From IMG/VR virus record IMGVR_UViG_2681813232_000002: a stretch of DNA of 35,822 nucleotides. One strand, written 5' to 3'. The position numbers were made by a program, and so were the translations under genes. Below, in pieces: positions 10,180 through 35,822 of this stretch (positions are counted from its first letter, which is position 1; each line of letters begins with the position of its first letter). Origin of the DNA: a virus. Its lineage: Duplodnaviria; Heunggongvirae; Uroviricota; Caudoviricetes. A model generated the notes under the pieces. It was not told the origin of the DNA, did no database searches, and saw only the letters and a list, made by a program, of their open reading frames with translations.

Positions 10180-10181
10180 TC

Positions 10182-10204: not shown

Positions 10205-10220
10205 CTCTGTGGAGGAGTCC

Positions 10221-10616: not shown

Positions 10617-10627
10617 CGGGAGGCGCT

Positions 10628-10981: not shown

Positions 10982-10992
10982 AAGGGGGATGT

Positions 10993-11963: not shown

Positions 11964-11970
11964 GGACGCT

Positions 11971-12711: not shown

Positions 12712-12726
12712 TCCGGAGAGTCAGAG

Positions 12727-13149
12727 ATGTTCCTGAAAACCGAATCATTTGAACATAACGGCGTGACCGTCACGCTTTCTGAACTGTCAGCCCTGCAGCG
12801 TATTGAGCATCTCGCCCTGATGAAACGGCAGGCAGAACAGGCGGAGTCAGACAGCAACCGGCAGGTTACTGTGGAAGACGTCATCAGAACCGGTGCTTGT
12901 GTGGTGGCGATGTCCCTGTGGCATAACCATCCGAAGAAGACGCAGATGCCGTCCATGAATGAAGCCGTTAAACAGATTGAACAGGAAGTGCTTACCACCT
13001 GGCCCACAGAGGCAATTTCTCATGCTGAAAACGTGGTGTACCGGCTGTCCGGAATGTATGAGTTTGTTGTGAATAATACCCCTGAACAGACAGAGGACGC
13101 CGGGCCTGCAGAGCCTGTTTCTGCGGGAAAGTGTTCGACGGTGAGCTGA
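12727..13149 (+). CDS. G: Tail assembly chaperone G
   Basis: 140 aa, MFLKTESFEHNGVTVTLSELSALQRIEHLALMKRQ...; matches recalled lambda gpG. Confidence 0.95.
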   Translation: MFLKTESFEHNGVTVTLSELSALQRIEHLALMKRQAEQAESDSNRQVTVEDVIRTGACVVAMSLWHNHPKKTQMPSMNEAVKQIEQEVLTTWPTEAISHAENVVYRLSGMYEFVVNNTPEQTEDAGPAEPVSAGKCSTVS

Positions 13150-18539: not shown

Positions 18540-21500
18540 ATGGGTAAAGGCAGCAGTAAGGGGCATACCCCGCGCGAAGCGAAGGACAACCTGAAGTCCA
18601 CGCAGCTGCTGAGTGTGATCGATGCCATCAGCGAAGGGCCGGTTGAAGGTCCGGTGGATGGATTAAAAAGCGTGCTGCTGAACAGTACGCCGGTGCTGGA
18701 CAGTGAGGGGAATACCAATATATCCGGCGTCACGGTGGTGTTCCGGGCAGGTGAGCAGGAGCAGTCACCGCCGGAGGGATTTGAATCCTCCGGCTCCGAG
18801 ACGGTGCTGGGTACGGAAGTGAAATATGACACGCCGATCACCCGCACCATTACGTCGGCAAACATTGACCGTCTGCGCTTTACCTTCGGTGTACAGGCAC
18901 TGGTGGAAACCACCTCAAAGGGTGACAGGAATCCGTCGGAAGTCCGTCTGCTGGTTCAGATACAGCGTAATGGTGGCTGGGTGACGGAAAAAGACATCAC
19001 CATTAAGGGCAAAACCACCTCGCAGTATCTGGCCTCGGTGGTGGTGGGTAACCTGCCGCCGCGCCCGTTCAATATACGGATGCGCAGGATGACGCCGGAC
19101 AGCACCACAGACCAGCTGCAGAACAAAACGCTCTGGTCGTCATACACCGAAATCATCGATGTGAAACAGTGCTACCCGAACACGGCACTGGTCGGCGTGC
19201 AGGTGGACTCGGAGCAGTTCGGCAGCCAGCAGGTGAGCCGTAATTATCATCTTCGCGGACGCATTCTGCAGGTGCCGTCGAACTATAACCCGCAGACGCG
19301 GCAATACAGCGGTATCTGGGACGGAACGTTTAAGCCAGCATACAGCAACAACATGGCCTGGTGTCTGTGGGATATGCTGACCCACCCGCGTTACGGCATG
19401 GGTAAACGTCTTGGTGCGGCAGATGTGGATAAATGGGCGCTGTATGTCATCGGCCAGTGTTGCGACCAGTCGGTGCCGGACGGTTTTGGCGGCACGGAGC
19501 CGCGCATCACCTGTAATGCCTGGCTGACCACACAGCGTAAGGTGTGGGATGTTCTCAGTGATTTCTGCTCGGCGATGCGCTGTATGCCGGTATGGAACGG
19601 GCAGACGCTGACGTTCGTGCAGGACCGGCCATCAGATAAGGTGTGGACCTATAACCGCAGTAATGTGGTGATGCCGGATGATGGCGCGCCGTTCCGCTAC
19701 AGCTTCAGCGCCCTGAAGGACCGCCATAATGCCGTTGAGGTGAACTGGATTGACCCGGACAACGGCTGGGAGACGGCGACAGAGCTTGTGGAGGATACGC
19801 AGGCCATTGCCCGTTACGGTCGTAACGTCACGAAGATGGATGCCTTTGGCTGTACCAGCCGGGGGCAGGCACACCGCGCCGGGCTGTGGCTGATTAAAAC
19901 GGAGCTGCTGGAAACGCAGACCGTGGACTTCAGCGTGGGTGCCGAAGGGCTTCGCCATGTACCGGGCGATGTCATTGAAATCTGCGATGATGACTATGCG
20001 GGCATCAGCACCGGTGGGCGCGTGCTGGCGGTGAACAGCCAGACGCGGACACTGACGCTCGACCGTGAAATCACGCTGCCAGCCTCCGGCACCACGCTGA
20101 TAAGCCTGGTTGACGGAAGTGGCAATCCGGTCAGCGTGGAGGTTCAGTCCGTCACCGACGGCGTGAAGGTGAAAGTGAGCCGTGTTCCTGACGGCGTTGC
20201 CGGATACAGCGTGTGGGGGCTGAAGCTGCCGACGCTGCGCCAGCGCCTGTTCCGCTGTGTGAGTATCCGTGAGAACGACGACGGCACGTATGCCATCACC
20301 GCCGTGCAGCATGTGCCGGAAAAAGAGGCCATCGTGGATAACGGAGCGCACTTTGACGGCGACCAGAGCGGCACGGTGAATGGTGTCACGCCGCCAGCAG
20401 TGCAGCATCTGACCGCAGAAGTCACCGCAGACAGCGGGGAATACCAGGTGCTGGCCCGCTGGGACACGCCGAAGGTGGTGAAGGGGGTGAGCTTTATGCT
20501 TCGCCTGACCGTGGCAGCGGATGACGGCAGTGAGCGACTGGTCAGCACGGCCCGGACGACGGAAACCACATACCGCTTCACGCAACTGACGCTGGGAAAC
20601 TACAGGCTGACAGTCCGGGCGGCAAATGCCTGGGGGCAGCAGGGCGATCCGGCATCGGTATCGTTCCGGATTGCCGCACCGGCAGCACCGTCGCGGATTG
20701 AGCTGACGCCGGGCTATTTTCAGATAACCGCAACGCCGCATCTTGCCGTTTATGATTCGACGGTACAGTTTGAGTTCTGGTTCTCGGAAAAGCGGATTGC
20801 GGATATCAGGCAGGTTGAAACCACAGCCCGCTATCTTGGCATGGCGCTGTACTGGATAGCCGCCAGTATCAATATCAAACCGGGCCATGATTATTATTTT
20901 TACGTTCGCAGTGTGAACACCGTTGGCAAATCGGCATTCGTGGAGGCTGTCGGTCAGCCGAGTGATGATGCATCCGGCTATCTGGATTTTTTCAAAGGCG
21001 AGATAGGGAAAACCCATCTGGCTCAGGAGCTGTGGACGCAGATTGATAACGGTCAGCTTGCGCCTGACCTGGCTGAAATCAGGACGTCCATTACGGATGT
21101 CAGCAATGAAATCACGCAGACCGTCAATAAGAAACTGGAAGACCAGAGTGCGGCAATTCAGCAGATACAGAAGGTTCAGGTTGATACAAATAATAACCTG
21201 AACAGCATGTGGGCTGTGAAGCTGCAGCAGATGCAGGACGGACGCCTTTATATCGCGGGTATTGGTGCCGGTATTGAGAACACCCCTGACGGCATGCAGA
21301 GTCAGGTGCTGCTGGCGGCGGACAGGATTGCGATGGTTAATCCTGCGAATGGCAACACAAAACCGATGTTTGTTGGTCAGGGCGATCAGATATTCATGAA
21401 CGACGTGTTCCTGAAACGCCTGACGGCCCCCACCATTACCAGCGGTGGAAATCCACCGGCATTTTCCCTGACACCGGACGGAAAGCTGACCGCTAAAAAT

Positions 21501-22037
21501 GCGGATATCAGTGGCAGTGTGAATGCGAACGCCGGGACGCTCAACAATGTCACGGTAAATGAAAACTGTACGATTAAGGGCATGCTGGAGGCGACTCAGG
21601 TCAGAGGTGACTTCGTTAAAGCTGTATCCAAATCATTTCCGAAACAGGCTGGTACGTGGGGTAACACGGAAACACCAAACGGGACGGTTACAGTCACCAT
21701 CAGCGATGATCATAACTTTGACCGTCAAATCATTATTCCGCCCATTATCTTTAACGGAATAGCGTATAGCGATCCGGGAAGTGGTAATAACCCGGGAGGT
21801 ACAAGATACACGGGTTATGGTTTTGAAGTTCGCAAAAACGGTGTATTAATCGCATCCAGAGAAACTAAAGGGGCCATTCCCGGTAGCTACAGTGCGGTTA
21901 TTGATATGCCGAGTGGCAGGGGAAGCGTCACTCTGGAGTTTAAGGTTTTCCATAAAGGCAATCAGTGGGCAGGTAATATCACCGACTGTACGGTGATTGT
22001 GACCAAAAAAGCTGCTTCCGGCATCAGTATTCGTTGA
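18540..22037 (+). CDS. J: Tail tip / central fibre protein J (host specificity)
   Basis: 1165 aa, [34 protein letters not shown]...; lambda gpJ-like over most of its length, with the C-terminal receptor-binding part diverged (see findings). Confidence 0.95.
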
Positions 22038-22106: not shown

Positions 22107-22706
22107 ATGCGTAAACTTTATGCCGCCATTTTGTCCGCAGCCATTTGTCTGGCCGTATCCGGTGCGCCTGCATGGGCATCTGAACATCAGTCCACGCTGA
22201 GCGCGGGGTATCTTCATGCCCGGACCAACGTTCCCGGCAGCGATGATCTGAACGGGATTAACGTGAAATACCGTTATGAGTTTACGGACACACTGGGGCT
22301 GGTGACGTCATTCAGCTATGCAGGAGACAAGAATCGCCAGCTTACCCGTTACAGCGATACCCGCTGGCATGAAGATTCCGTTCGTAACCGCTGGTTCAGC
22401 GTAATGGCGGGGCCGTCTGTGCGCGTGAATGAATGGTTCAGCGCGTATGCGATGGCGGGTGTGGCTTACAGCCGTGTGTCGACTTTCTCCGGGGATTATC
22501 TCCGCGTAACTGACAACAAGGGGAAAACGCACGAAGTGCTGACCGGAAGTGATGACGGTCGCCACAGCAACACGTCTCTGGCGTGGGGGGCTGGCGTGCA
22601 GTTTAACCCGACCGAATCCGTGGCCATTGATATTGCTTATGAAGGCTCCGGCAGTGGCGACTGGCGCACTGACGGTTTCATCGTGGGTGTCGGTTATAAA
22701 TTCTGA
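22107..22706 (+). CDS. lom: Lom, outer-membrane beta-barrel protein of the Ail/Lom family
   Basis: 199 aa with signal peptide ([24 protein letters not shown]) and C-terminal ...VGVGYKF; lies after J as in lambda. Confidence 0.9.
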
Positions 22707-22733
22707 TTAGCCAGGTAACACAGTGTTATGACA

Positions 22734-22759
22734 GCCCGCCGGTTCAGGCGGGCTTTTTT
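22734..22759 (+). terminator. Rho-independent terminator after lom
   Basis: GCCCGCC-GGTTCAG-GCGGGC followed by TTTTTT. Confidence 0.65.
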
Positions 22760-22764
22760 GTGAG

Positions 22765-25700
22765 GTGAATATGGCAGTAAAGATTTCAGGTGTACTGAAA
22801 GACGGCGCAGGTAAACCGGTACAGAACTGCACAATCCAGCTGAAAGCAAAACGTAACAGCACCACGGTGGTGGCGAACACGGTGGCCTCAGAAAATCCGG
22901 ATGAAGCCGGGCGTTACAGCATGGACGTTGAGTACGGTCAGTACAGCGTTATTCTGTTGGTGGAAGGATTCCCGCCGTCACATGCCGGGACCATCACCGT
23001 GTATGAAGATTCTCAACCCGGTACGCTGAATGATTTTCTCGGTGCCATGACGGAGGATGATGCCCGTCCGGAGGCACTGCGCCGTTTTGAACTGATGGTG
23101 GAAGAGGTGGCGCGTAACGCGTCCGCAGTGGCGCAGAACACGGCAGCCGCGAAGAAGTCAGCCAGCGATGCCAGCACATCAGCCCGTGAGGCGGCAACCC
23201 GTGCGACTGATGCTGCAGGCTCAGCACGTGCAGCCAGCACGTCAGCCGGACAGGCCGCGTCGTCGGCTCAGTCAGCGTCTTCCAGCGCAGGAACAGCATC
23301 AACAAAGGCCACTGAAGCATCAAAAAGTGCTGCCGCCGCAGAGTCTTCAAAAAGCGCGGCAGCCACCAGTGCAGGTGCAGCGAAAACGTCGGAAATGAAT
23401 GCCGCAGCATCACAAAAATCTGCGGCCACATCTGCATCCACCGCGACCACGAAAGCGTCAGAAGCTGCCACCTCAGCCCGGGATGCGTCGGCTTCAAAAG
23501 TGGCGGCAAAATCATCAGAAACGAGCGCTGCCTCGAGCGCCGGCAGTGCAGCTTCCTCGGCAACGGCGGCAGGAAATTCCGCGAAGGCCGCAAAAACGTC
23601 TGAGACGAATGCGGATAACAGCGCACAGGCGGCAGCAGACTCACAAACTGCATCGGCAAACTCCGCGACAGCAGCCAAAAAATCAGAAACCAACGCGAAA
23701 AATAGTGAGGCAGCAGCAAAGGTCAGCGAAACCAACGCTAAAGCGTCAGAGAACAAGGCGAAAGAATATCTCGACAAGGTCGGGGGACTCGTCAGCCCGA
23801 TGACGCAATACGATTGGCCCGTTGTTACTGGTAATGAGTCTTTTTACATCAAGATCGCGAAACTTTCCGATCCCGGAAGCAACAATTGCCATGTAACGCT
23901 AATGGTTACTAATGCCGGTAACTACGGCTCCCCTTACGGAAACATTGACTTTATCGAGATCTCGGCGCGCGGTCTGCCTTCTTCGCTTACTGCGGATAAT
24001 GTATCCCGTTACCTGAGTATACGCCGCTTAGGGGCAACCGGGCTGACCGATGACAACCAGATGCGTTACGGCCTGGTTAAAGGTGATGGCTTTATTGAGG
24101 TTTGGGCCTTCCAGCGTGCATTTATCAACGGCGCAAAGGTTGCGGTACTGGCGCAGACGGCACGCACGGAATTATACATTCCAGACGGATTTGTTAAGCA
24201 AACCGCCGCGCCTTCTGGATATGTTGAAGGCAACGTTGTAAGGATTTACGACCAGGTAAACAAGCCGACTAAAGCAGATTTGGGTCTTTCTAATGCTATG
24301 CTTACAGGCGCTTTCGGTCTTGGCGGTAGCGGTCTTGTTTTGGATGGTAAAATGACCGATAAGGAACTACTACAAGAGCTAAGGGCGAAAGGTGGGTGTT
24401 TCTGGAGGTCAGGAAAACCAACAGGTAGCGAATCAACAATTTTCAGTCACGGTTCTGGTATATTCTCGCGGTGCGGCGATACGTGGTCAGCTATTAATAT
24501 CGATTACGAAAGCGGTAGAGTAAAGATTTACTCTAGTAACGATAATAGACTCAACAATGGTACTTTTAACATAAATGAGCTATACGGAACCAAATACAAG
24601 CCGTCGAAATCGGATGTTGGACTTAGCAATGTAACGAACGATGCGCAGGTAAAAAAAACCGGCGATATTATGTCAGGTGATCTGTCGATCACTAAAGCAA
24701 CACCTTCACTATACCTGCGTTCAAAAAGTGGAACCGCCCATGTATGGTTCCAAAATGAGGATCAGTCGGAACGCGGCGTTATTTTTGCGCCTACAAATAC
24801 TGATACGCTTGGCGAAGTTCACATCAGGGCTAAAAACGCAAAAGGTCAATCAAGTGGTGATTTTATTGTTCGTCACGACGGGATGGTAGAAGCCCTTAAT
24901 CTAAAAGTAACGAGAAAAATCAATGGAGCCACCGCAGAATTTGCAAACACAAGCACTAACTCCGATGATACCACGGTAAATATCAAAGGATCACAGCATA
25001 CGCCTTTGGTTTTAACGCGCAACAACACAATTAAAAACTTATCCATTGGGTTTAAGGTTGATGATGTTGATCAAAAATACCTGGGTATAGCTGGCGACGG
25101 TGATTTATATTTTGGTAGTTATTCTGACCACACAAAAAACAGCAAAGTGATCACACAAGCAAAACTAGATAGCGGGTTAACGGTAGGAGGTAAAACAACC
25201 TTTTCTGACCTTGCTACATTCAACGCAGGTATATCTGGAGCAATTGAACCTGAAAACATTTCTTCAGAGACTGTCGATCTTAATAATCTGACCATAAAAG
25301 ACACAGATAAAGGATCAGTTAAATACTATCAATGCAGAACTGCCGGAGGTGGTGCAAATATTACCAATAAGCCTGACGGCGTAGGCGGCAACTTTTTGCT
25401 TCGTGTAGAGTCAATTCGTAAGGTTAGTGATTCAGATTATATAAACATGCAAACGCTGATTAGCGGCGACAAAGGACGCGTGTATGTTCGTTTTGTTACT
25501 AATGGTAATTTTACAGCATGGAGCGAGCATGTTGTTTCAGGATGGAATCAGGATGTGACCGTCAGGTCGTTAACCTCGACGACTCCATCAAAATTAGGTG
25601 GCGGGCGGATTGATGTGCTTGGAAGTACGTCAGATTATGGCGAGATGAATTGTACTGTGCGTGGTGTTGATAGCACTGGAACTAATTCGGCGTGGTCTGT

Positions 25701-26529
25701 AGGTACATCAGAAAGCACAGGAAAAATGTTGTACCTGAAAAACCACAGAAGCAGCGCTCAAGTGCTGTTAAATGGCGATGATGGCGCGGTGCAACTACTA
25801 AGCGGTACTGTCAACGGTGCTACAGCACAGGCGCTAACCATCAACAAAGATGAGGTTAACTCAACTGTTAATTTAACCCTTACAAAACAATCAGGGACTG
25901 GCAATCGTTTTGTTTTACAGAACGCAGGTAATGCAGAACTACCGTTTTTTGTCAGTGTGTGGGGTTCCAGTACTCGACAAAACGTTCTTGAGGTTGGAAC
26001 GTCTGCTGCGTATCTGTTTTATGCGCAAAGAACGCCAGCAGGCCAGTTGTTTGATGTAAATGGCGCTATTAATTGCACAACGCTGAATCAGTCATCAGAC
26101 CGCGACCTTAAAGACGATATTCTCGTTATCAGCGACGCGACGAAAGCAATCCGTAAAATGAACGGATACACCTACACGCTCAGGGAAAACGGGATGCCTT
26201 ATGCTGGCGTTATTGCACAGGAAGTAATGGAGGCGATACCAGAAGCTGTGGGATCGTTTACTCATTACGGTGAAGAGTTGCAGGGACCAACGGTTGACGG
26301 CAACGAGCTACGCGAAGAAACGCGCTATCTTAATGTTGACTACGCCGCCGTGACGGGTTTACTTGTTCAGGTCGCCCGTGAAACAGATGATCGCGTTACC
26401 GCGCTGGAAGAGGAAAACACAACGCTACGTCAAAATCTGGCAACAGCAGGCACCCGGATCAGCACTCTGGAAAATCAGGTAAGCGAACTGGTTGCACTTG
26501 TCCGGCAGTTAACAGGAAGCGAACATTGA
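22765..26529 (+). CDS. stf: Side tail fibre protein (Stf-like), chimeric: lambda-Stf-like N-terminus, divergent distal region, C-terminal intramolecular-chaperone (peptidase S74-like) domain
   Basis: 1254 aa. N-terminus MAVKISGVLKDGAGKPVQNCTIQLKAKRNSTTV... matches recalled lambda Stf. Ala/Ser-rich repeat region follows. C-terminus has an S-D-R-D-L-K-D-D-I motif followed by a coiled-coil (LEEENTTLRQNL...LENQVSELVALVRQL). Confidence 0.9.
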   Translation: MNMAVKISGVLKDGAGKPVQNCTIQLKAKRNSTTVVANTVASENPDEAGRYSMDVEYGQYSVILLVEGFPPSHAGTITVYEDSQPGTLNDFLGAMTEDDARPEALRRFELMVEEVARNASAVAQNTAAAKKSASDASTSAREAATRATDAAGSARAASTSAGQAASSAQSASSSAGTASTKATEASKSAAAAESSKSAAATSAGAAKTSEMNAAASQKSAATSASTATTKASEAATSARDASASKVAAKSSETSAASSAGSAASSATAAGNSAKAAKTSETNADNSAQAAADSQTASANSATAAKKSETNAKNSEAAAKVSETNAKASENKAKEYLDKVGGLVSPMTQYDWPVVTGNESFYIKIAKLSDPGSNNCHVTLMVTNAGNYGSPYGNIDFIEISARGLPSSLTADNVSRYLSIRRLGATGLTDDNQMRYGLVKGDGFIEVWAFQRAFINGAKVAVLAQTARTELYIPDGFVKQTAAPSGYVEGNVVRIYDQVNKPTKADLGLSNAMLTGAFGLGGSGLVLDGKMTDKELLQELRAKGGCFWRSGKPTGSESTIFSHGSGIFSRCGDTWSAINIDYESGRVKIYSSNDNRLNNGTFNINELYGTKYKPSKSDVGLSNVTNDAQVKKTGDIMSGDLSITKATPSLYLRSKSGTAHVWFQNEDQSERGVIFAPTNTDTLGEVHIRAKNAKGQSSGDFIVRHDGMVEALNLKVTRKINGATAEFANTSTNSDDTTVNIKGSQHTPLVLTRNNTIKNLSIGFKVDDVDQKYLGIAGDGDLYFGSYSDHTKNSKVITQAKLDSGLTVGGKTTFSDLATFNAGISGAIEPENISSETVDLNNLTIKDTDKGSVKYYQCRTAGGGANITNKPDGVGGNFLLRVESIRKVSDSDYINMQTLISGDKGRVYVRFVTNGNFTAWSEHVVSGWNQDVTVRSLTSTTPSKLGGGRIDVLGSTSDYGEMNCTVRGVDSTGTNSAWSVGTSESTGKMLYLKNHRSSAQVLLNGDDGAVQLLSGTVNGATAQALTINKDEVNSTVNLTLTKQSGTGNRFVLQNAGNAELPFFVSVWGSSTRQNVLEVGTSAAYLFYAQRTPAGQLFDVNGAINCTTLNQSSDRDLKDDILVISDATKAIRKMNGYTYTLRENGMPYAGVIAQEVMEAIPEAVGSFTHYGEELQGPTVDGNELREETRYLNVDYAAVTGLLVQVARETDDRVTALEEENTTLRQNLATAGTRISTLENQVSELVALVRQLTGSEH
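23095..23760 (+). repeat. Low-complexity Ala/Ser/Thr-rich repeat region inside stf (GCx/TCx/ACx codon repeats)
   Basis: Protein segment ...SASDASTSAREAATRATDAAGSARAASTSAGQAASSAQSASSSAG... repeated over about 220 aa; it generates the many spurious overlapping ORFs on both strands here. Confidence 0.7.
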
Positions 26530-26712
26530 TATCCTTCAAGCTCTGAAGGAGGCTGTTCCCGGTACGTTCAGACTGTTGTTGAGCTGGAAATCGCAACGGA
26601 GGAAGAGAAAGCGTTACTGGCCGCATGGAAAAAGTATCGGGTGTTGCTGAACCGTGTTGATACATCAACTGCACCTGATATTGAGTGGCCGGAAGAACCA
26701 GACACAATGTAA
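26530..26712 (+). pseudogene. Remnant 3' end of a tail-fibre assembly (tfa) gene, no start codon
   Basis: Directly after the stf stop the same frame stays open for 60 codons, ending ...[45 protein letters not shown], the conserved C-terminal signature of Tfa proteins as I recall it. No ATG or SD. Confidence 0.45.
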
Positions 26713-27246
26713 GCGAAAAAGAAAAACCGCAGACACGACGTATGCAGGACGTGCTGCGGTTGGCTGGTGAACTTCCGATAGTGCGAGTATTGAATGATTT
26801 CAAGCTGTTATCGATTTTACGTATTTTTGTATGAGAGGATTTCCACCACCTCCCACCGACCATCTAAGACTTTATGCCACTGTCCCTAGGACTGCTATGT
26901 ACTAGGAGCGGATGTTAAACTCAGACTCGTTTCAGCTACATTGCGTTTTGAATAATATTCCATCATAATAACTCTTTGAAAAATGTGATCTTTTCATTTA
27001 TAACACTGATGACTTGCTTATCTCATTGGGATATCGGAGGAGAATACTTAACTATGACAAGCCCGATTATTATGACACTGGCTATATTATATAGATTGAT
27101 ATTAAAATGTAGGATTAGGTTCTTGCCAAGGTGTCAAGATTTACAGATAGGTTTAAAACCATATAAATATGTTTTACGGTGAGATACAATACATATTGTA
27201 AGGCATAAACGCTTGGTAAAATTTTAATTATTGGAAGAAGCTAATC

Positions 27247-30200
27247 ATGGAACCCATATCAATTACAGTGGCAACTTATGTAGCAACTAAACTTATTGAT
27301 CAATTCATCTCTCAAGAAGGATATGGTTGTATTAAGAAAGCATTATTCCCCCAAAAAAGATATGTGGATAGATTATATCAACTAATTGAAGAGACGGCAA
27401 TTGAGTTTGAAGAAACATATCCAGTAGAAAGTGGAGCAATACCATTTTATCATTCCGAACCATTGTTTGAGATGTTGAATGAGCACATCTTTTTTAAAGA
27501 GTTCCCTGACAAAGAGATATTATTAGACAAGTTCAAAGAATATCCAAGTATCACTCCCCCAACTCAACAACAACTCAGCCTTTTTTATGAGATGTTATCA
27601 TTAAAAATCAATAATTGTTCGAAGTTAAAAAAGCTACATATCGAAGAAACGTATAAAGAAAAAATATTCGATATTAATGAAGAGCTCATTCAAGTCAAAC
27701 TTATTTTACGGTCTATAGATGAGAAACTAACTTTTCACTTAAGTGATGGTTGGTTAAATGAAAAAAATAGTCAAGCAATAGCTGACTTGGGAGGTCGATA
27801 CACACCCGAACTCAACGTAAAGCTAGAAATAGCAGAGATATTTGATGGCCTCGGTAGAACTAATGATTTTTCTAAAATATTTTATTCGCATATAGATAGC
27901 TTTCTGGTCGCTGGAAAGAAATTACATAGTTGCGATGTAATTTCCTCAGAATTATTTGAAATAAACCAGTCCTTAAAAGAAATTTCTGATATATATCAGG
28001 AGATTAATTTTTCTAAATTAGATGAAATCCCTATAAATAAATTTAATAACTATGTTTCTAGCTGCCAGACAGCTATTGGCGGAGCGGTATCAATATTGTG
28101 GGAACTCCGAGAAAAGTCAGAGCAAGTAGGTGAAACCAAGCATTACAGTGATAAGTATTCATCTACTCTGCGAATGCTTCGGGAATTTGACTATGCGTGC
28201 AATGAATTACGTATATTCATTAATTCAACAACAGTGAAGTTGGCTAACAACCCATTCTTACTTCTCGAAGGAAAAGCAGGAATTGGTAAGTCTCATTTAC
28301 TGGCTGATGTGATTAAAAATCGAATTGCTTCTGGGTATCCTTCACTACTCATACTAGGGCAACAACTTACTTCAGATGAATCTCCATGGTCACAAATCTT
28401 CAAGAGATTACAGCTTAAAATCACTTCTCGTGAATTCCTAGAAAAACTGAATTTATATGGCAAAAAAACAGGAAAAAGAGTCTTAGTTTTTATTGATGCT
28501 ATTAATGAAGGTAATGGAAATAAATTCTGGAATGACAATATTAACAGTTTTGTCGATGAAATCAGATGCTTTGAATGGCTTGGTCTGATAATGTCAGTCA
28601 GAACAACATATAGAAATGTAACAATTTCACATGAGAATGTTGTGCGAAATAATTTTGAAATTCATGAACATATTGGATTCCAGAACGTTGAGTTGGAAGC
28701 GGTTAGTCTATTTTATGATTATTACAATATTGAGAGGCCTTCATCTCCTAACCTTAATCCAGAGTTTAAAAATCCTCTATTTCTTAAGTTATTGTGTGAA
28801 GGCATTAAGAAAAATGGTTTAACCAAAGTGCCTGTTGGATTTAATGGGATTTCAAATATTTTTAACTTTTTAGTTGAAGGGGTAAATAAATCATTAGCAT
28901 CGCCAAAAAAATATGCATTCGATCCCAGTTTTCCTCTTGTTAAAGATGCTCTCAATGAAATCATAAAATTCAAATTAGAGATTGGTCGTAATAGTATTTC
29001 ACTTAAAGATGCTCACTCAGTGGTTCAATCTGTAGTTAATGATTATGTTGCTGATAAAACCTTCCTCAGCGCCTTGATTGACGAAGGATTATTGACTAAA
29101 GGCATAGTGAGAAATGATGATAATTCTACTGAGGAAGTAGTTTATGTGGCTTTTGAAAGGTTTGATGATCATTTAACTGTTAATTTTTTATTAAATGATG
29201 TTGAAAATATCGAAAGTGAATTTAAGCCTGATGGTCGTCTGAAAAAATATTTTCATGATGAATGTGATTTTTATATAAAATCGGGAATAGTAGAGGCGTT
29301 GTCTATTCAATTGCCAGAAAGGTATGAAAAAGAGCTTTATGAATTTCTGCCGGAGTTCAGCAATAATCTTAAATTACTAGAAGCCTTTATTGATAGCTTG
29401 ATATGGCGCGATATTAAGGCTATTGATTTCGAAAAAATTAGACCTTTCATCAATGAACATGTTTTTAAATTTAAAGATAGTTTTGATCATTTCCTCGAGG
29501 CAGTGATCTCTATTTCAGGTTTAGTTGGCCATCCCTTTAATGCTAATTTCTTGCATGATTGGCTAAAAGATTATTCTTTGGCAAATCGAGATTCGTTTTG
29601 GACTACAGAACTTAAATATAAATATAGTGAAGACTCAGCATTTAGGCATCTAATCGATTGGGCATGGGCCAGAACAGATAAAAGCTTTGTTTCGGATGAG
29701 TCAATCGAGCTAGTTGCAACTAGTTTATGCTGGTTTTTAACTTCTAGTAACCGAGAACTTCGAGATTGCTCAACTAAGGCTTTAGTGAGTTTACTCGAGC
29801 CAAGAATTCCTGTATTGAGAAAAATAATTGATAAGTTTTATGGTGTAAATGATCCTTACGTTTGGGAAAGAATATTTGCAGTTGCATTAGGCTGTACATT
29901 GCGAACTGATAATATTAAAGAACTAAAATATTTAGCCGAAACTGTTTACCAAAAGGTATTTTGTTCTAAGTATGTGTATCCAAATATATTACTTAGAGAT
30001 TATGCTAGAGAGATTATTGAATTTGCTAATCATCTTGGATTGGAACTTGAAAGCATTGAATTATCCAAGACTAGACCACCCTACAACAGCATTTGGCCTG
30101 ACAAGATTCCTTCAAAAGAGGAACTAGAGTCCCTTTATGATAAAGAACCTTATCGGGAACTCTGGAGCTCTATTATGGAAGATGGTGACTTTTCACGATA

Positions 30201-31701
30201 TACTATTGGAACAAATTATAATCATTCTGATTGGTCTGGTTGCAAGTTTAATGAAACCCCTGTTGACCGTAAGCAAGTTTTTAAAACTTTCAAATGTAAA
30301 CTAACTGATCAACAAAAAGACTTGTATGATGCCACAGATCCTTTCATTTATGATGATAAATGCGAAGGAATTAAATTTGGTCGTGTGGTCGGTAGAAAAG
30401 CACAGGAAGAAATAAAGGCGAGCAAGAAATTATTTAAGAATTCATTGTCATACGATCTGTTAAGTGAGTTTGAAAATGAAATAGAGCCATACCTGGATCA
30501 TAATAATAATCTGCTGGAAACTGATAAACACTTTGATCTTCGACTAGCTCAACAATTTATATTCAATCGTGTTATAGAGCTTGGTTGGGATCCGGAGAAG
30601 CATGGTAATTTTGACCAACAAATAGGAACTGGACGTGGACGTAGAGAGGCATTCCAAGAACGGATTGGTAAAAAATACCAATGGATTGCTTATTATGAAT
30701 ACATGGCAAGGCTAGCCGATAATTTTACTCGTTTTGAAGGTTATGGTGACGAACGAAAGGAAAATCCATACCAAGGGCCATGGGAGCCTTACGTAAGAGA
30801 TATAGATCCCACTATCTTACTTAAAGAAACTGGAACGAAAAAAATAAGCAATAAAGAAATGTGGTGGCTTAATGATGAAGTGTTTGATTGGACTTGCTCT
30901 AATGAAGACTGGGTTAAAAGTTCTACTACTATAACTAATTCATATGCTTTTATTGAAGTTAAAGATGATAATGGTGATGAATGGATAGTATTAGAAAGTC
31001 ATCCATCATGGAAAGAACCAAAAATTATTGGAAACGATGATTGGGGGCACCCACGAAAAGAGGTTTGGTATCAGATCAGAAGTTATATCGTTAAAGTTGA
31101 AGAATTTGAAAATTTTAGATGTTGGGCAATAGCTCAAGACTTTATGGGCAGGTGGATGCCGGAATGTACTGATAGATACCAATTATTTAATAGGGAGTAC
31201 TATTGGTCCGAAGCATTTAAGTCTTTTAAATCAGATTATTATGGTGGATCTGACTGGACTTCGGTAACAGACCGGGAGTCTGGAGCTAAGATAGCTGATG
31301 TTAGTGTCACTTCGATTAATTATTTGTGGGAAGAGGAGTTCGACAAATCAAAAATAGAAACTTTGAATTTTTTGAAGCCTAGTAACTTAATCTTTGAAAA
31401 GATGGGATTAAAAAGTGGGGAAGTAGAGGGTAGCTTCAATGATGAAAATGGAACTATGGTTTGCTTTGCAGCTGAAGCTGTATATGCTTCAAAGCCGCAT
31501 CTACTTGTTAAAAAAGAACCATTTTTAACAATGTTAAGGGACAATGGTTTTGAAATCGTTTGGACATTATTAGGTGAAAAGGGCGTTATAGGGGGCTCAC
31601 TCATATCAAGTCATCATTATGGTCGACAGGAGTTTAGTGGAGCATTTTATTATGAAGACAGTCAGCTAACAGGAAGTCATAAAACTAGCTTTACGAGATA
31701 A
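27247..31701 (+). CDS. Large P-loop NTPase (STAND/NACHT-like Walker A and B), 1484 aa; candidate single-gene anti-phage defence protein
   Basis: Strong SD (GGAAGAAG) 7 nt upstream of the ATG. Walker A FLLLEGKAGIGKSHLLADV (about residue 335); Walker B RVLVFIDAINEG (about residue 410). Visibly AT-rich compared with the flanking phage genes. Sits in the b-region position between the tail fibre and attR. Confidence 0.85.
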   Translation: MEPISITVATYVATKLIDQFISQEGYGCIKKALFPQKRYVDRLYQLIEETAIEFEETYPVESGAIPFYHSEPLFEMLNEHIFFKEFPDKEILLDKFKEYPSITPPTQQQLSLFYEMLSLKINNCSKLKKLHIEETYKEKIFDINEELIQVKLILRSIDEKLTFHLSDGWLNEKNSQAIADLGGRYTPELNVKLEIAEIFDGLGRTNDFSKIFYSHIDSFLVAGKKLHSCDVISSELFEINQSLKEISDIYQEINFSKLDEIPINKFNNYVSSCQTAIGGAVSILWELREKSEQVGETKHYSDKYSSTLRMLREFDYACNELRIFINSTTVKLANNPFLLLEGKAGIGKSHLLADVIKNRIASGYPSLLILGQQLTSDESPWSQIFKRLQLKITSREFLEKLNLYGKKTGKRVLVFIDAINEGNGNKFWNDNINSFVDEIRCFEWLGLIMSVRTTYRNVTISHENVVRNNFEIHEHIGFQNVELEAVSLFYDYYNIERPSSPNLNPEFKNPLFLKLLCEGIKKNGLTKVPVGFNGISNIFNFLVEGVNKSLASPKKYAFDPSFPLVKDALNEIIKFKLEIGRNSISLKDAHSVVQSVVNDYVADKTFLSALIDEGLLTKGIVRNDDNSTEEVVYVAFERFDDHLTVNFLLNDVENIESEFKPDGRLKKYFHDECDFYIKSGIVEALSIQLPERYEKELYEFLPEFSNNLKLLEAFIDSLIWRDIKAIDFEKIRPFINEHVFKFKDSFDHFLEAVISISGLVGHPFNANFLHDWLKDYSLANRDSFWTTELKYKYSEDSAFRHLIDWAWARTDKSFVSDESIELVATSLCWFLTSSNRELRDCSTKALVSLLEPRIPVLRKIIDKFYGVNDPYVWERIFAVALGCTLRTDNIKELKYLAETVYQKVFCSKYVYPNILLRDYAREIIEFANHLGLELESIELSKTRPPYNSIWPDKIPSKEELESLYDKEPYRELWSSIMEDGDFSRYTIGTNYNHSDWSGCKFNETPVDRKQVFKTFKCKLTDQQKDLYDATDPFIYDDKCEGIKFGRVVGRKAQEEIKASKKLFKNSLSYDLLSEFENEIEPYLDHNNNLLETDKHFDLRLAQQFIFNRVIELGWDPEKHGNFDQQIGTGRGRREAFQERIGKKYQWIAYYEYMARLADNFTRFEGYGDERKENPYQGPWEPYVRDIDPTILLKETGTKKISNKEMWWLNDEVFDWTCSNEDWVKSSTTITNSYAFIEVKDDNGDEWIVLESHPSWKEPKIIGNDDWGHPRKEVWYQIRSYIVKVEEFENFRCWAIAQDFMGRWMPECTDRYQLFNREYYWSEAFKSFKSDYYGGSDWTSVTDRESGAKIADVSVTSINYLWEEEFDKSKIETLNFLKPSNLIFEKMGLKSGEVEGSFNDENGTMVCFAAEAVYASKPHLLVKKEPFLTMLRDNGFEIVWTLLGEKGVIGGSLISSHHYGRQEFSGAFYYEDSQLTGSHKTSFTR

Positions 31702-32084: not shown

Positions 32085-32130
32085 ATTCGTAATGCGAAGG
32101 TCGTAGGTTCGACTCCTATTATCGGCACCA
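32085..32130 (+). repeat. 46-bp copy of the 3' end of tRNA-Thr(CGU) (thrW-type), ending in CCA; att core duplicate (probable prophage attR), not a functional tRNA
   Basis: ATTCGTAATGCGAAGGTCGTAGGTTCGACTCCTATTATCGGCACCA matches the anticodon-loop to 3' end of E. coli tRNA-Thr(CGU) as recalled. The D-arm and 5' acceptor strand are absent upstream. Confidence 0.8.
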
Positions 32131-32294
32131 TCACCTAGTTTTCCCAAGTCAACCCACATCAACAAAATCATTTAAAAACATATATATTACGTTGTTTTCA
32201 TACGTTTGAGGTCAACCCTTGTCTCTTGAAATCAACACGCGGTTGGGGGCACAATCAGGGGCATGTTCTGTTCGATCTAGGAAATGTGCCCCCA

Positions 32295-33485
32295 ATGATG
32301 CTGAATGCCCGCAAGGTTGAAGCTGCGAAAGGAAAAGAGAAGAGCTACAAGCTGTTTGATGGAGGTGGCCTATACCTTCAGGTCGAACCTAATGGCTCGC
32401 GTTACTGGCGTATGAAATACCGTTTTGCTGGTAAAGAGAAACGATTGTCCTTTGGTGTTTATCCAACAGTCACACTTGCTGATGCCAGACAAAAACGAGA
32501 AGACGCGAAGAAACTACTCGCAGCAGGTGAAGATCCCGGCGAAGTCAAAAAAGCCAAAAAGCAGGCTTTAAATGCAGCGAGTGAGACACTTAACCCATTC
32601 AGAGAAGTGGCGTTAGAGTGGCACAAAATGAAATCACCCAAATGGTCTGAGGGCTATGCTTCCGACATCATTGAGGCATTCGAGAAAGACATTTTCCCGC
32701 ATATTGGGCACAGACCTATAGCTGATATTCAGCCCCTTGAACTGCTTGAAGTTCTGAGGTTGATAGAAGCTCGAGGCGCTATGGAGAAAGCGAAGAAAGT
32801 CCGTCAGCGATGCGGTGAAGTTTTTCGCTATGCCATCGTAACGGGTAGGGCAATCTACAATCCGGCACCGGATCTTGCCAGTGCGATGCAAGGACATGAA
32901 GCAGTCCACTATCCATTCCTCAAAGCCAACGAACTACCGGAGTTCTTTAATGCCCTTAATTCTTATTCAGGAAGTCCAATTGTATTGTTGGGGGCGCATT
33001 TACTTATCCTGACAGGTCTACGAACTGGAGAACTACGAGCAGGTGAGTGGCGAGAGGTGGATTTTGATAATGCGGTGTGGGAGATCCCAAAAGAACGTAT
33101 GAAAATGCGTAGGAGCCATATTGTCCCGTTGTCAAAACAAGCATTATCCCATCTCAAAAGTTTGAAAGAACTAACTGGGAACTACCCGCTGATGTTCCCT
33201 GGACGCAACGATCCCAGCAAATTTATGAGTGAAGCAAGCATTAATCAGGTGTTTAAACGTATTGGATATGCAGGGCGTGTTACGGGGCATGGTTTCAGGC
33301 ATACGATGAGTACAATCCTACATGAGAAAGGATTTAACAGCGCTTGGATTGAAACCCAGCTTGCTCATTCGGACAAAAACTCTATTCGTGGAATTTATAA
33401 CCATGCCCAATATCTCGAAGGGAGAAGAGAAATGATGCAATGGTATGCTAATTATTTATCTGAGCAAATTGGTACTCATAAATGA
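32295..33485 (+). CDS. int: Tyrosine recombinase/integrase, P4-like (genomic-island type)
   Basis: MMLNARKVEAAKGKEKSYKLFDGGGLYLQVEPNGSRYWRMKYRFAGKEKRLSFGVYPTVTLADAR... is the typical P4-type N-terminal arm-binding domain. C-terminal catalytic region has R...HGFRHT...Y-like motifs. The ORF track starts at 32226 but there is no ATG before 32295. Confidence 0.9.
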   Translation: MMLNARKVEAAKGKEKSYKLFDGGGLYLQVEPNGSRYWRMKYRFAGKEKRLSFGVYPTVTLADARQKREDAKKLLAAGEDPGEVKKAKKQALNAASETLNPFREVALEWHKMKSPKWSEGYASDIIEAFEKDIFPHIGHRPIADIQPLELLEVLRLIEARGAMEKAKKVRQRCGEVFRYAIVTGRAIYNPAPDLASAMQGHEAVHYPFLKANELPEFFNALNSYSGSPIVLLGAHLLILTGLRTGELRAGEWREVDFDNAVWEIPKERMKMRRSHIVPLSKQALSHLKSLKELTGNYPLMFPGRNDPSKFMSEASINQVFKRIGYAGRVTGHGFRHTMSTILHEKGFNSAWIETQLAHSDKNSIRGIYNHAQYLEGRREMMQWYANYLSEQIGTHK

Positions 33486-34306
33486 ATATTTTAAAAATTA
33501 ATAATACTGATTCTCTGCTCAGAGATTACTACCAGTTGGATGAAGCTTCAGAAAAAATTGGTTGTAGTGAAAAGGATATACTCTGGTTTGCCAGAGAACG
33601 AGATGTAGAGCTATGCATGGAATTCCATGATGATGAGTATGATGTTTCATGTGGTTTGAAGATTGATGGTCAAATAGATGAGTTCTTATCTAATCTGAAA
33701 TATTTACCACGAGATAGAAATGGCAATATTATGTTGTCAGACTTAAGTTCTATAAGAATCCCTGATGAAGATAATTTAATTGATAAAAATGGTTTTATTC
33801 GATGCTTCATATCCGGTTTATGGGCTGTTGATTATGAATATAAAGATCTGTTAGTTAAGCATGAGGGGCAACCGGATTCCTGGCCTATTCATTTTCTACT
33901 GGCGGGTACGCCTAATATAAATTGTAAGGTAATTCTTTATGTAAATTATGATGAAAAAGAAAATTATTATCTTTTTGAGGTTTTGTGGATTACAAAGGTA
34001 CAGATTCAAAAATTCATTGATATAGTCTTATGCGAACAAAAGCGGATAAAAAACGCCAATAAATATAAATCACAATCTGAGGCGCAAAAACAAAAACATG
34101 CTGTTCCTCGAGCTGAAATACTCATGGCTATTATTTCGCTCTATCATCGTGATATGAGGCTAAGAAGAGAGAGTCCAGCAGCGATAGCTGATTATCTTTT
34201 TCAACATGCCAGTGAGTTCTGGCCTAAGACCGGAGAACCGCCTTTGAGCTATGATACTGTTGTTAGTTTGCTACGTAGTTGCATGAAAAACATTAAGTTT
34301 AACTAA
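33482..34306 (+). CDS. Hypothetical protein, AT-rich, translationally coupled to the integrase (ATGA overlap)
   Basis: 274-aa ORF with markedly AT-rich codon usage; no family recognised. Confidence 0.7.
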   Translation: MNILKINNTDSLLRDYYQLDEASEKIGCSEKDILWFARERDVELCMEFHDDEYDVSCGLKIDGQIDEFLSNLKYLPRDRNGNIMLSDLSSIRIPDEDNLIDKNGFIRCFISGLWAVDYEYKDLLVKHEGQPDSWPIHFLLAGTPNINCKVILYVNYDEKENYYLFEVLWITKVQIQKFIDIVLCEQKRIKNANKYKSQSEAQKQKHAVPRAEILMAIISLYHRDMRLRRESPAAIADYLFQHASEFWPKTGEPPLSYDTVVSLLRSCMKNIKFN

Positions 34307-34431
34307 ATATTAACAATTGTTGTGGCTAATGATTTTGAATTTTTTTCATTAGTCACATTTTTCTCATTTATAACCTATGTTTTAATTTTCCGTGTTGAAG
34401 CCAATAGACTTAGATAAACGGAGAATGATGA

Positions 34432-34722
34432 ATGTTATCTAAACATGATAATACTACTTTGCAACGACCTTCAATGGATTCTCTGATCGATATGAAGTTT
34501 ATTACTTCCGATTGTTTATTAAGTGATAAATGGATTTATCGATTGATTTCTCTGAATCGCTTTCCAAAACCTATAAAAATAGGTCGGATGTCACGATGGC
34601 GCGCTGCTGATTATTATAAGTGGCGAGATGGGTTTGAAGAAAACTCAGGTCAACAGTTTGAGGGGATGAGAAATAAGGCAAGAGCAATTAATAAAGGGAA
34701 TAGATTATCACCTACTCCCTAA
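34432..34722 (+). CDS. alpA: AlpA-family (phage_AlpA) helix-turn-helix regulator / excisionase-like protein
   Basis: Segment DMKFITSDCLLSDKWIYRLISLNRFPKPIKIGRMSRWRAADYYKWRD fits the AlpA pattern (HTH, FPKP.K.G, W..E...W). Start codon uncertain (34432, 34474 or 34492). Confidence 0.6.
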   Translation: MLSKHDNTTLQRPSMDSLIDMKFITSDCLLSDKWIYRLISLNRFPKPIKIGRMSRWRAADYYKWRDGFEENSGQQFEGMRNKARAINKGNRLSPTP

Positions 34723-34754
34723 GCCTTAATTGATAGTTAGTAATATTTAACTGA

Positions 34755-34929
34755 TTAGCCTTTAGGGTCAATCCCGCGTGATTGGAGTTCTTTGCGTAAA
34801 ATTCTTTTAATCCAAGTTGCCAACGCGCTATCTCCATCTTTGCGCATTTCGTTTTCGAGTTGCAACCTAAAATCGTCGGTAAGACGCATTTGGAATGGTG
34901 GAGAACGTTTCTCTTGTGGTGTTGACATG
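34755..34929 (-). pseudogene. Arc-like ribbon-helix-helix repressor gene, apparently disrupted by a 1-nt frameshift
   Basis: From ATG (34929) the frame reads MSTPQEKRSPPFQMRLTDDFRLQ then shifts. The -1 frame continues LENEMRKDGDSALATWIKRILRKELQSRGIDPKG to a TAA. The joined sequence has an Arc-like strand-helix-helix pattern. Shift is at a T-run near 34860-34862. Confidence 0.35.
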
Positions 34930-34951
34930 GTAATTACCCTAGAATATGATG
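34923..34951 (+). promoter_or_regulatory. Candidate sigma70 promoter: TTGACA, 17-nt spacer, TATGAT, reading rightward
   Basis: TTGACA at 34923-34928, 17-nt spacer, TATGAT at 34946-34951; near-consensus hexamers. Confidence 0.5.
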
Positions 34952-34967
34952 ACTACATGGTAATTAC
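34930..34967 (+). promoter_or_regulatory. Two copies of the perfect 10-bp palindrome GGTAATTACC flanking the -10 (candidate operators)
   Basis: ACATGGTAATTACC occurs at 34926-34939 and 34954-34967; the palindrome cores are 28 bp apart centre to centre. Confidence 0.45.
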
Positions 34968-35059
34968 CATTGTAAGTATAGTTCGCTTGTAAAAGCAATG
35001 CCCGATTGTGCGGGAACACAAATCGGGCATTTAACCAACCGTTATAAGAGGTAACGAAG

Positions 35060-35236
35060 ATGGCTAAACAGAAGTGTACCTGGTTATTTGCGGCGATCAA
35101 CCGCAGTCAACGCAATGCCCGTCCTGTGATGTTAAGGATCACCGCAGATAACGAGCGGTCAGCGCGGCGCAGACTTGCCCCGGACTATGTACTGAGCTTT
35201 GCCGGGCGCATTCCCTGCGGAGGTGAACATGCGTAA
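35060..35236 (+). CDS. Small ORF (58 aa), hypothetical; first gene downstream of the candidate promoter
   Basis: SD GAGG 7-8 nt upstream of the ATG (MAKQKCTWLFAAINRSQRNARPVMLRITADNERSARRRLAPDYVLSFAGRIPCGGEHA). Its stop overlaps the next start. Below the ORF-track cutoff. Confidence 0.4.
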   Translation: MAKQKCTWLFAAINRSQRNARPVMLRITADNERSARRRLAPDYVLSFAGRIPCGGEHA

Positions 35237-35588
35237 TTATCCGCATCCCGGCGAACGCTGGCAGCATGAACGTGGCTGGACGGTCACGATTATCCGATTA
35301 ATAGAAGCCTCGCCCTCTGTGGCGCTGGTTAATCCTGAATTCAGCTGTGAAGTGCTGATACGTCATGACAGCGACAACCAGCTTTCTTCCTGCCCTCTGG
35401 CATGGTTTGAACAGCGATATACGCGCCTGTTTGATGTACCGCTCTTTAAGCCTGCACCAGCTCCTGCAGGCGGTAGTGGTTCCGGCCCGCTGACACTGCA
35501 TCCGTCTGTGCTATTTATCCGCTGGCGGGAGCGTAGCATATGGCGTTCTGCTGAGCCTGATGACGGTCACTATTCAAAGTTTCTCTGA
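35229..35588 (+). CDS. Hypothetical protein (119 aa)
   Basis: Strong SD GGAGGTG just upstream of ATG 35229 (MRNYPHPGERWQHERGWTVTII...). The ORF track starts at 35199 but the internal start has the better RBS. Confidence 0.55.
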   Translation: MRNYPHPGERWQHERGWTVTIIRLIEASPSVALVNPEFSCEVLIRHDSDNQLSSCPLAWFEQRYTRLFDVPLFKPAPAPAGGSGSGPLTLHPSVLFIRWRERSIWRSAEPDDGHYSKFL

Positions 35589-35618
35589 CACAATACCGCT
35601 GAAAACGGAGTAATCCAC

Positions 35619-35822
35619 GATGAATATTTCAAACGGGCACAACGGTGCTCAGGGCCACACTTTGCCTGAAAAACACAATACCGGTGTTTTTGCCTATGGG
35701 TTGTCAGAGGACCGTTTCGGAAAGCTGACCCGCGCAAGAAATGCCTGCGACATGCTCCAGCTTCTCTTTTCTGAATACCCGTCTCAGGCCGGAGCACTGG
35801 ACACTGGCTGTGCGCATGGTGT
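35619..35822 (+). CDS. Hypothetical protein, 3'-truncated by the window edge
   Basis: ATG at 35619 (MNISNGHNGAQGHTLPEKHNTGVFAYGLSEDRFGKL...); frame open to the end of the window. Confidence 0.45.

Follow-up and report, generated by a model that had tools for sequence, protein, structure and literature searches.

A lambda-like E. coli prophage side tail fibre that probably carries an S74 chaperone in place of Tfa

We analysed the whole stretch of 35,822 nucleotides introduced above (the window) and found that stf, the gene at 22771-26529, is intact and encodes the side tail fibre of a lambda-like prophage of E. coli. Very probably, its product is a functional mosaic fibre in which a built-in S74 chaperone, predicted to cleave itself off, replaces the separate chaperone Tfa. 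The architecture itself is already known. It is common, RefSeq already has names for it, and the phages Ayreon and mEp460, both sequenced, carry near-identical genes. Residue numbers throughout are counted from the GTG at 22765.

Results

The stf gene is intact and starts at an ATG

22771..26529, + strand: stf, side tail fibre gene; 1252 codons from the ATG, stop codon TGA at 26527-26529

The open reading frame runs without interruption from 22765 to 26529 on the + strand, with 1254 codons if read from the GTG. This GTG falls within a Shine-Dalgarno-like GAGGTG, and the ATG at 22771 comes after it. Translation from the ATG begins with MAVKISG, the start of both lambda Stf and the solved chain 9e7m; thus, stf is best read as 22771-26529. 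The start is almost certainly ATG 22771 and not GTG 22765, giving a product of 1252 aa. The gene lies right after J (18540-22037) and lom (22107-22706), as in a lambda-like tail operon, and a complete late operon is annotated at the identical RefSeq locus.

Going by public annotation, stf would be a prophage gene that is broken or in decay, consisting of a pseudogene N-terminal fragment and a protein made from an internal start, with no complete fibre. At a 100% identical locus, PGAP calls a partial pseudogene and a 1044-aa CDS ('tail fiber domain-containing protein'), and in AR435 it calls a pseudogene and a 267-aa CDS. The adjoining tfa is truly a pseudogene. However, the 1252-codon frame is uninterrupted in the window, Ayreon, AR435, and MB07152. 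Comparing stf with its Ayreon counterpart, we find a dN/dS of 0.235 overall and of 0.09 to 0.42 by module, with the minimum in the chaperone domain and the maximum (0.42) in the presumed tip. Purifying selection thus acts on all modules of the gene, even on the stretch for which PGAP has no annotation. GenBank holds the Ayreon and mEp460 genes each as a single side tail fibre protein, and in E. coli strain 1-62 PGAP itself calls one protein, a 'prophage tail fiber N-terminal domain and S74 family endopeptidase-containing protein'. We rejected the pseudogene reading of RefSeq on the intact frame and the dN/dS values, and consider a broken gene extremely unlikely. The two-part call is apparently an artefact of annotation near the Ala/Ser stretch, which is of low complexity.

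A lambda-type front end carries foreign modules

22771..23172, + strand: prophage tail fibre N-terminal domain, for tail attachment; residues 3-136 (PF08400, 2.1e-71; 9e7m, 3.8e-51)
23101..23814, + strand: Ala/Ser-rich, heptad-periodic shaft of the lambda Stf type; residues 113-350, from composition, periodicity and identity to lambda orf-401
23815..25614, + strand: middle fibre module, foreign to lambda; about residues 351-950, 44% GC, boundaries approximate, from tblastn matches to Klebsiella phages
25615..26094, + strand: distal module, presumed receptor-binding tip; about residues 951-1110, ending at the predicted scissile bond, from similarity to mEp460 Stf

An earlier note on this DNA had assigned the first 330 or so residues to the N-terminal domain and Ala/Ser repeats of lambda Stf, and had called the remaining 900 or so different from lambda. 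Both statements hold. Residues 1-348 are 74.6% identical to lambda orf-401, while neither orf-401 nor orf-314 matches the fibre past residue 348. In Pfam, PF08400 scores above its curated cut-off, and the PDB match of the N-terminal part is a tail fibre chain (9e7m). The shaft is 34% Ala and 21% Ser, and it shows a periodicity of 7/14 residues (autocorrelation 0.41 vs a shuffled maximum of 0.275). Tandem Repeats Finder detected no meaningful repeats in the DNA; the Ala/Ser repeats are evident at the protein level only.

The GC content is 53% for residues 1-112, 59% for 113-350, 44-45% for 351-1110, and 51% for 1111-1254, so the remark that the distal part becomes AT-richer was correct. For the middle module, tblastn gave matches to Klebsiella phage tail fibres (the vB_Kpl_K50 group and the L-shaped fibre of Spivey) that cover 77-80% of the query at 54% identity, and matches to KP15-like phages at 37-40% identity. 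Klebsiella phages made up 339 of the 413 matched records. Residues 508-591 are similar to the tail fibre chain of PDB 7z47. Further along, residues 892-1252 are 78% identical to mEp460 Stf, and the DNA from 25561 to 26825 is 89% identical to that phage. The segment immediately upstream of Ser1111 resembles T4 gp34 in a profile search (4uxe/5nxf, ~1e-6). Pfam matched no family across residues 137-1110, and NCBIfam gave no match to the fibre. The mosaic seen against lambda, mEp460, and Klebsiella phage fibres bears out the view that the fibre is chimeric.

The C-terminus is an S74 intramolecular chaperone domain

26095..26526, + strand: intramolecular chaperone domain of the Peptidase_S74 family; residues 1111-1254, 144 aa
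26095..26112, + strand: SDRDLK motif; predicted catalytic Ser1111 and Lys1116, predicted scissile bond Ser1110-Ser1111
26377..26526, + strand: heptad coiled-coil tail of the chaperone domain; residues 1205-1254, from the heptad register and the AF2 helix

The earlier note had proposed an S74 profile search and a structure prediction of the C-terminus, and both gave a positive answer. Peptidase_S74 (PF13884) matched residues 1111-1162 at 8.7e-12, with 45.6 bits against a curated cut-off of 22. The AlphaFold model of the domain has a pLDDT of 92, and its significant structural matches are solved intramolecular chaperones only. The model shows the S74 fold, namely a mixed alpha/beta part, a long beta-hairpin, and a C-terminal helix for a trimeric coiled coil. 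The domain forms the final 144 of the 1254 residues, i.e. the extreme C-terminus; among relatives, the S74 match reaches the protein end, or a few residues short of it, in nearly all.

The S-D-x-x-L-K motif noticed earlier is present as SDRDLK, the sole [ST]-D-x-x-x-K in the protein. The note had placed it at about 26092-26121; the surrounding peptide NQSSDRDLKDDI (residues 1108-1119) is encoded at 26086-26121. The chaperone family comprises 3628 cluster representatives at E <= 0.001. Among aligned representatives, the positions of Ser1111, Asp1112, and Lys1116 hold Ser in 103/105, Asp in 104/105, and Lys in 105/105. Searching the PDB with the single sequence of the domain, we found 6f45 only. 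A profile of diverse relatives matched the solved chaperones 6f45, 7dc3 (MyRF ICA), 8hqz (T5 pb1), 8jov, and 3gud, with Ser and Lys aligned; T5, GA-1, and MyRF were reached just with the profile. SDRDLK aligns to SDERHK, the first residues of the released GA-1 chaperone, and the 3gud chain starts at the homologous Ser.

The heptad coiled coil said to follow the motif was also found. The last 50 residues keep a single clean heptad register with I, L, M, or V at 10 of the 14 a/d positions, and the AF2 model places one helix across model residues 104-162. Just 10-27 of 107 relatives cover the final ~25 residues.

One of the closest known systems is the lateral fibre pb1 of the siphovirus T5. Like the present fibre, it ends in an S74 intramolecular chaperone with a trimeric coiled coil and a beta-hairpin 'tentacle'. 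In both, the catalytic Ser is followed five residues on by Lys, with cleavage just before the Ser (predicted here). However, the tip and the attachment end of pb1 share no detectable sequence similarity with this fibre, and the two chaperone domains are only ~10% identical in structural alignment. In T5, the bond cut is Thr1263-Ser1264, with Lys1269 (i+5) as the partner of Ser1264, and an S1264A mutation blocks this cleavage (PMC4690869). The chaperones of the K1F endosialidase (3gw6) and the GA-1 neck appendage (3gud), both PF13884 / MEROPS S74, have the same fold and motif, but they serve tailspikes or appendages whose beta-helix bodies are enzymatic, whereas here the client is a lambda-type fibre. 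The closest solved sequence relative of the domain is the long tail fibre gp37 of Salmonella phage S16 (6f45, 1.5e-18 by profile), in which the SSDRxxK motif is identical in register. That protein belongs to a T4-like myovirus fibre which, unlike the present one, also uses a separate adhesin, gp38.

We considered whether the C-terminal domain is a trimerisation coiled coil only, which stays uncleaved on the mature fibre or has lost its protease activity. The coiled-coil tail is ~35 residues longer than in most relatives, and cleavage of this particular protein is a prediction. In T5 and K1F, an upstream Arg and Asp of a neighbouring chain complete the S74 active site (Arg1250 and Asp1239 in T5). 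Counterparts of these two were not mapped in our model of residues 889-1254 (tip and chaperone), a poor and unreliable one (pLDDT 52; 30 close homologues) that we left out of the fold search. On the other hand, the invariant positions of the family still hold Ser, Asp, and Lys here, and dN/dS is lowest in this very domain. Moreover, the uncleaved T5 domain masks receptor binding (PMC4690869), so a retained domain would probably disable the present fibre. We therefore judge the loss of cleavage unlikely and favour a self-cleaving chaperone.

A tfa remnant follows the fibre gene

26566..26712, + strand: tfa 3' remnant, a pseudogene; 45 codons equivalent to lambda Tfa 147-191 plus a stop codon, no usable start
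26727..26759, + strand: hairpin 3' of the tfa remnant, possible terminator of the tail fibre operon; -19.4 kcal/mol, z = -2.7

In lambda, Stf likewise follows J and lom and has the same N-terminal domain and Ala/Ser shaft; however, its distal two thirds are unrelated to this fibre, and it relies on the separate chaperone Tfa, of which a 45-codon remnant is left here. The earlier note had described tfa as missing. This is right in that no intact tfa lies anywhere in the window, but a 3' remnant persists directly after the stf stop and in the same frame as stf. At 26566-26700, it is 75.6% identical to lambda Tfa residues 147-191. RefSeq labels it a pseudogene ('incomplete, missing N-terminus'). 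The same remnant follows stf in Ayreon and mEp460, and in strain 1-62 it is frameshifted while stf is intact. Expression of the remnant, from its own start or by read-through from stf, was rejected, as the sole in-frame start yields 23 aa and the frame is broken in strain 1-62. Tfa of the Mu type binds the fibre with its variable N-terminal domain and forms trimers through its conserved C-terminal helices (PMC9608196); the remnant thus lacks the fibre-binding part. The hairpin that follows is partly conserved with the post-tfa sequence of lambda, Ayreon, and mEp460. Its T tract is weak, and for this reason a consensus terminator scan missed it.

Another prophage in the host might still provide, in trans, a Tfa-type chaperone on which the fibre depends, and E. 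coli genomes do contain tfa-like sequences, in a median of 2 places each. However, the specificity of Tfa is set by its variable N-terminal domain, and this domain varies together with the fibre tip (PMC9608196); the tip here is unrelated to the Tfa-dependent tips of lambda. The free-living, plaque-forming phages Ayreon and mEp460 have the same stf end and remnant with no intact tfa adjoining. Fibres with an S74 domain, T5 pb1 among them, fold when no other protein is expressed with them (PMC4690869). We regard help in trans as very unlikely and retain the reading of a fibre with its own chaperone.

Relatives and occurrence

The Ayreon Stf (ATP61598.1) is 93.9% identical over all 1252 residues and shares the J-lom-stf-tfa-remnant layout, so that it differs from the window gene by allelic changes only. 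The mEp460 Stf (AFM76057.1) has the N-terminal 365 and the C-terminal 361 residues in common with it, but its middle module is different. At a coverage of at least 80%, the gene is found in 406 of 5426 complete E. coli genomes (about 7%). RefSeq names the architecture 'pyocin knob domain-containing S74 family peptidase' or 'prophage tail fiber N-terminal domain and S74 family endopeptidase-containing protein'.

Discussion

Fibres with built-in S74 chaperones are textbook knowledge from T5 and K1F, and our finding carries little weight as a discovery given that the exact architecture is named in RefSeq. A design that is both common and already named in public annotation is ordinary. The locus is of use in other ways. 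It shows, in a natural case, that the stem of lambda Stf accepts a tip that is probably independent of a separate chaperone, and the stem/tip junction near residue 350 is relevant to the engineering of lambda-based delivery particles. It also flags a recurrent mis-annotation in RefSeq, where an intact stf is split in two. Since a tfa stub was left behind, the direction of the evolutionary module replacement is visible.

The literature that we searched yielded no experimental work with this protein or with any other S74-ended lambda-like Stf. Trimer formation, cleavage, and independence from Tfa are inferred by homology to T5 pb1, the K1F endosialidase, and the GA-1 neck appendage. The lambda-type N-terminal domain and the Ala/Ser heptad shaft anchor the trimer to the tail, and two foreign distal modules make up what remains of the fibre, including its presumed receptor-binding tip. 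By analogy with the three systems just named, three C-terminal domains would trimerise through the coiled coil and template the folding of the distal fibre. Once the trimer has folded correctly, Ser1111, activated by Lys1116, would cut the Ser1110-Ser1111 bond, and release of the chaperone domain (~16 kDa) would expose the receptor-binding tip. With folding help built in, no Tfa would be needed. Stf is dispensable for the growth of lambda in the laboratory, so the viability of Ayreon and mEp460 is no proof that their Stf assembles.

As for the origin, recombination probably replaced an ancestral Tfa-dependent tip together with most of tfa. The right-hand crossover would have fallen in the conserved 3' end of tfa, which would survive as the decaying remnant. 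We can only tentatively extend this to a wider scheme, which we think rather unlikely. The S74 cassette would have entered the lambda-like lineage by that crossover, and the tfa stub with its hairpin would act as a fixed recombination anchor, tips being swapped on its left whatever their chaperone system and cargo on its right. As part of the same scheme, Stf might bind a surface glycan and not OmpC, the receptor reported for lambda Stf, since the middle module is common to Klebsiella phage fibres. The cargo 3' of the tfa remnant does vary, being Avs2 in the window, SMODS-SLATT in AR435, and sitABCD in strain 1-62.

The side tail fibre gene and its start

The window is a contig of E. coli. The region matches a lambda-like prophage of the E. 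coli strain MB07152 at 100% identity; this prophage has a complete late operon, from terminase past the tape measure protein to J and lom, and then the ORF of the side tail fibre gene, stf.

Features of the stf locus
18540-22037: J, in the late operon ahead of lom
22107-22706: lom, between J and the stf ORF
22765-26529, + strand: stf ORF, no interruption
26727-26759: conserved hairpin, -19.4 kcal/mol

The GTG at 22765 falls within a Shine-Dalgarno-like GAGGTG, and translation from the ATG at 22771 gives MAVKISG..., as in lambda Stf and the solved chain 9e7m, so 22771-26529 (1252 codons) is the preferred reading of the gene. Residues are numbered here from the GTG (1254 residues), two higher than in a count from the ATG. 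In several genomes, RefSeq (PGAP) divides stf into a "partial pseudogene" and a separate CDS with an internal start, as if the gene were split. We reject this reading: the 1252-codon frame is under constraint, it is uninterrupted in all split-annotated copies (22771-26529 in the window; 9007-12765 and 5392-9150 in the database loci L001 and L006), and in another genome PGAP names one protein of the same architecture. The split also leaves the Ala/Ser-rich part of stf unannotated.

The tail-tip protein J has the full set of lambda J domains, among them the C-terminal receptor-binding domain PF12421 (1e-25). Farther upstream lie the part of a porin gene that the window includes and the DLP12-like lysis genes essD, rrrD and quuD, as annotated in the identical RefSeq locus.

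The fibre ends in an S74 chaperone domain

The earlier note had proposed that Stf ends in a self-cleaving, S74-type chaperone, pointing to an S-D-x-x-L-K motif and a heptad coiled coil. Both were found. The motif lies within NQSSDRDLKDDI (residues 1108-1119, nt 26086-26121), its SDRDLK being the sole [ST]-D-x-x-x-K of the whole protein, and the last 50 residues keep one clean heptad register. Performing an HMM search, we found Pfam Peptidase_S74 (PF13884, "chaperone of endosialidase") at residues 1111-1162 with 8.7e-12, which exceeds the curated cut-off. Residues 1090-1254, searched exhaustively against 1.84 billion cluster representatives, returned 3628 relatives of many lengths at E <= 0.001, in which the match nearly always lay at the extreme C-terminus. 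In an alignment of about 105 representatives, Lys1116 is invariant (105 of 105), and Asp1112 (104) and Ser1111 (103) are nearly so.

A profile of 25 diverse family members matched the solved chains 6f45 (S16 gp37), 7dc3 (MyRF ICA domain), 8hqz (T5 L-shaped fibre), 8jov and 3gud (GA-1 neck appendage chaperone), with Ser and Lys in register in each; the first residue of the released GA-1 chain is exactly the homologous Ser. The AlphaFold model of the domain from the same alignment (pLDDT 92) consists of a small alpha/beta part, a long beta-hairpin and a single 59-residue helix. At E <= 1e-3, Foldseek matched it only to 7dc3, 3gud and 3gw6, with no further match below E = 1. By all testable features, Stf belongs to the S74 intramolecular chaperone family.

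The coiled-coil tail (26470-26526, residues ~1230-1254) is about 25-35 residues longer than that of most relatives and is covered by only 10-27 of 107 representatives. It weakly matches trimeric or dimeric coiled coils, among them the P22 tail needle gp26.

In T5, the bond cut is Thr1263-Ser1264, the S1264A mutation stops autoproteolysis, and the Ser is activated by Lys1269 (PMC4690869). By homology, Stf is predicted to be cut at Ser1110-Ser1111, which would leave a mature fibre ending in ...TTLNQS and free a 144-residue fragment. Two alternatives are disfavoured, an uncleaved or inactive domain and help in trans from a tfa gene (the separate fibre chaperone) elsewhere: the catalytic residues are intact, the domain is under strong constraint and T5 provides a precedent, all of which speak against both. 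No experimental study of an S74-ended lambda-like side fibre turned up in the literature searched, so we infer both cleavage and receptor specificity.

Mosaic structure of the fibre

The lambda Stf-like front end noticed earlier was confirmed: the N-terminal 348 residues share 74.6% identity with lambda orf-401, and beyond residue 348 there is no match to orf-401 or orf-314. In DNA, lambda homology spans 22579 to 23612. The Ala/Ser-rich repeats hold at the protein level, where the shaft (residues 113-350; Ala 34%, Ser 21%) has a clear 7/14-residue period (autocorrelation 0.41 vs a maximum of 0.275 after shuffling); stf has no DNA-level tandem repeat. The AT-richer distal part was likewise borne out, since GC is highest in the shaft (59%) and falls to 44-45% in residues 351-1110, against 53% in residues 1-112 and 51% in the last 144.

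The middle module (~residues 351-950) is 54% identical to Klebsiella-phage tail fibres and 37-40% to KP15-like phage fibres, and 339 of the 413 phage records matching it are Klebsiella phages. Over residues 508-591, a short stretch, the module is similar to the tail fibre chain of PDB 7z47, and the stretch directly ahead of the catalytic Ser resembles T4 gp34. The Escherichia phage Ayreon holds the same gene over its full length (94.4% DNA, 93.9% protein identity), and the Stf of phage mEp460 has residues 1-365 and 892-1252 in common and a different middle. Against Ayreon, dN/dS is 0.10 in the N-terminal domain, 0.13 in the shaft, 0.27 in the middle, 0.42 in the distal module (~residues 951-1110) and 0.09 in the chaperone, which is the pattern to expect of a functional fibre whose tip is diversifying.

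A tfa remnant follows the fibre gene

The absence of tfa reported earlier stands for an intact gene, of which there is none anywhere in the window, but a remnant persists directly 3' of the stf stop, in the same frame. It corresponds to lambda Tfa residues 147-191 (75.6% identity), is a pseudogene without an N-terminus in RefSeq, and its sole in-frame start would yield 23 aa. The remnant and the hairpin also lie 3' of stf in Ayreon and mEp460, and the stf-end/remnant junction is present at a coverage of at least 80% in 238 complete E. coli genomes. In E. coli strain 1-62, the remnant is frameshifted, with an S74-ended Stf of 1090 residues still intact.

Mu-type Tfa binds the fibre by its variable N-terminal domain and trimerises via conserved C-terminal helices (PMC9608196). 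The surviving piece is the generic part, the fibre-binding part being gone. We infer that an S74-ended cassette took the place of most of tfa and of a tip that depended on Tfa, with the right-hand crossover falling within the conserved 3' end of tfa.

At its N-terminal end, Stf also belongs to the lambda Stf family, but it lacks lambda's distal part and probably its tfa dependence. This architecture already has a name in RefSeq and is found in Ayreon and mEp460; among the 5426 complete E. coli genomes, 406 contain the stf gene at a coverage of at least 80%. Recent phage surveys treat as standard the idea that a tail fibre relies either on its own intramolecular chaperone or on a separate Tfa (PMC11990801). 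The earlier finding is correct and well read, yet ordinary.

A variable cargo slot and a second element

Directly after the tfa remnant, in DNA of 31-33% GC beginning near 26830, the window encodes the anti-phage protein Avs2 (AVAST type 2; 27247-31701, + strand, 1484 aa; NCBIfam NF041813, 1689 bits). The slot holds SMODS and SLATT in E. coli strain AR435, sitABCD in strain 1-62, small ORFs in Ayreon, and DinI and an integrase in mEp460. Its contents thus differ between genomes, which makes it a counterpart of the lambda b region with variable cargo. Only 5 of the 5426 complete E. coli genomes contain the Avs2-integrase block.

The 48 bases at 32085-32132, immediately upstream of a tyrosine integrase, match the 3' part of tRNA-Thr genes exactly; the window contains no intact tRNA. 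Within 32297-35822, the integrase precedes an HTH regulator, an ash pseudogene, an Icd-like gene and a second recombinase; past the window end, the identical RefSeq locus continues with a primase. Together, the tRNA-Thr stretch and these genes appear to be where a second integrative element, satellite-like, adjoins the prophage: its attachment site and left end.
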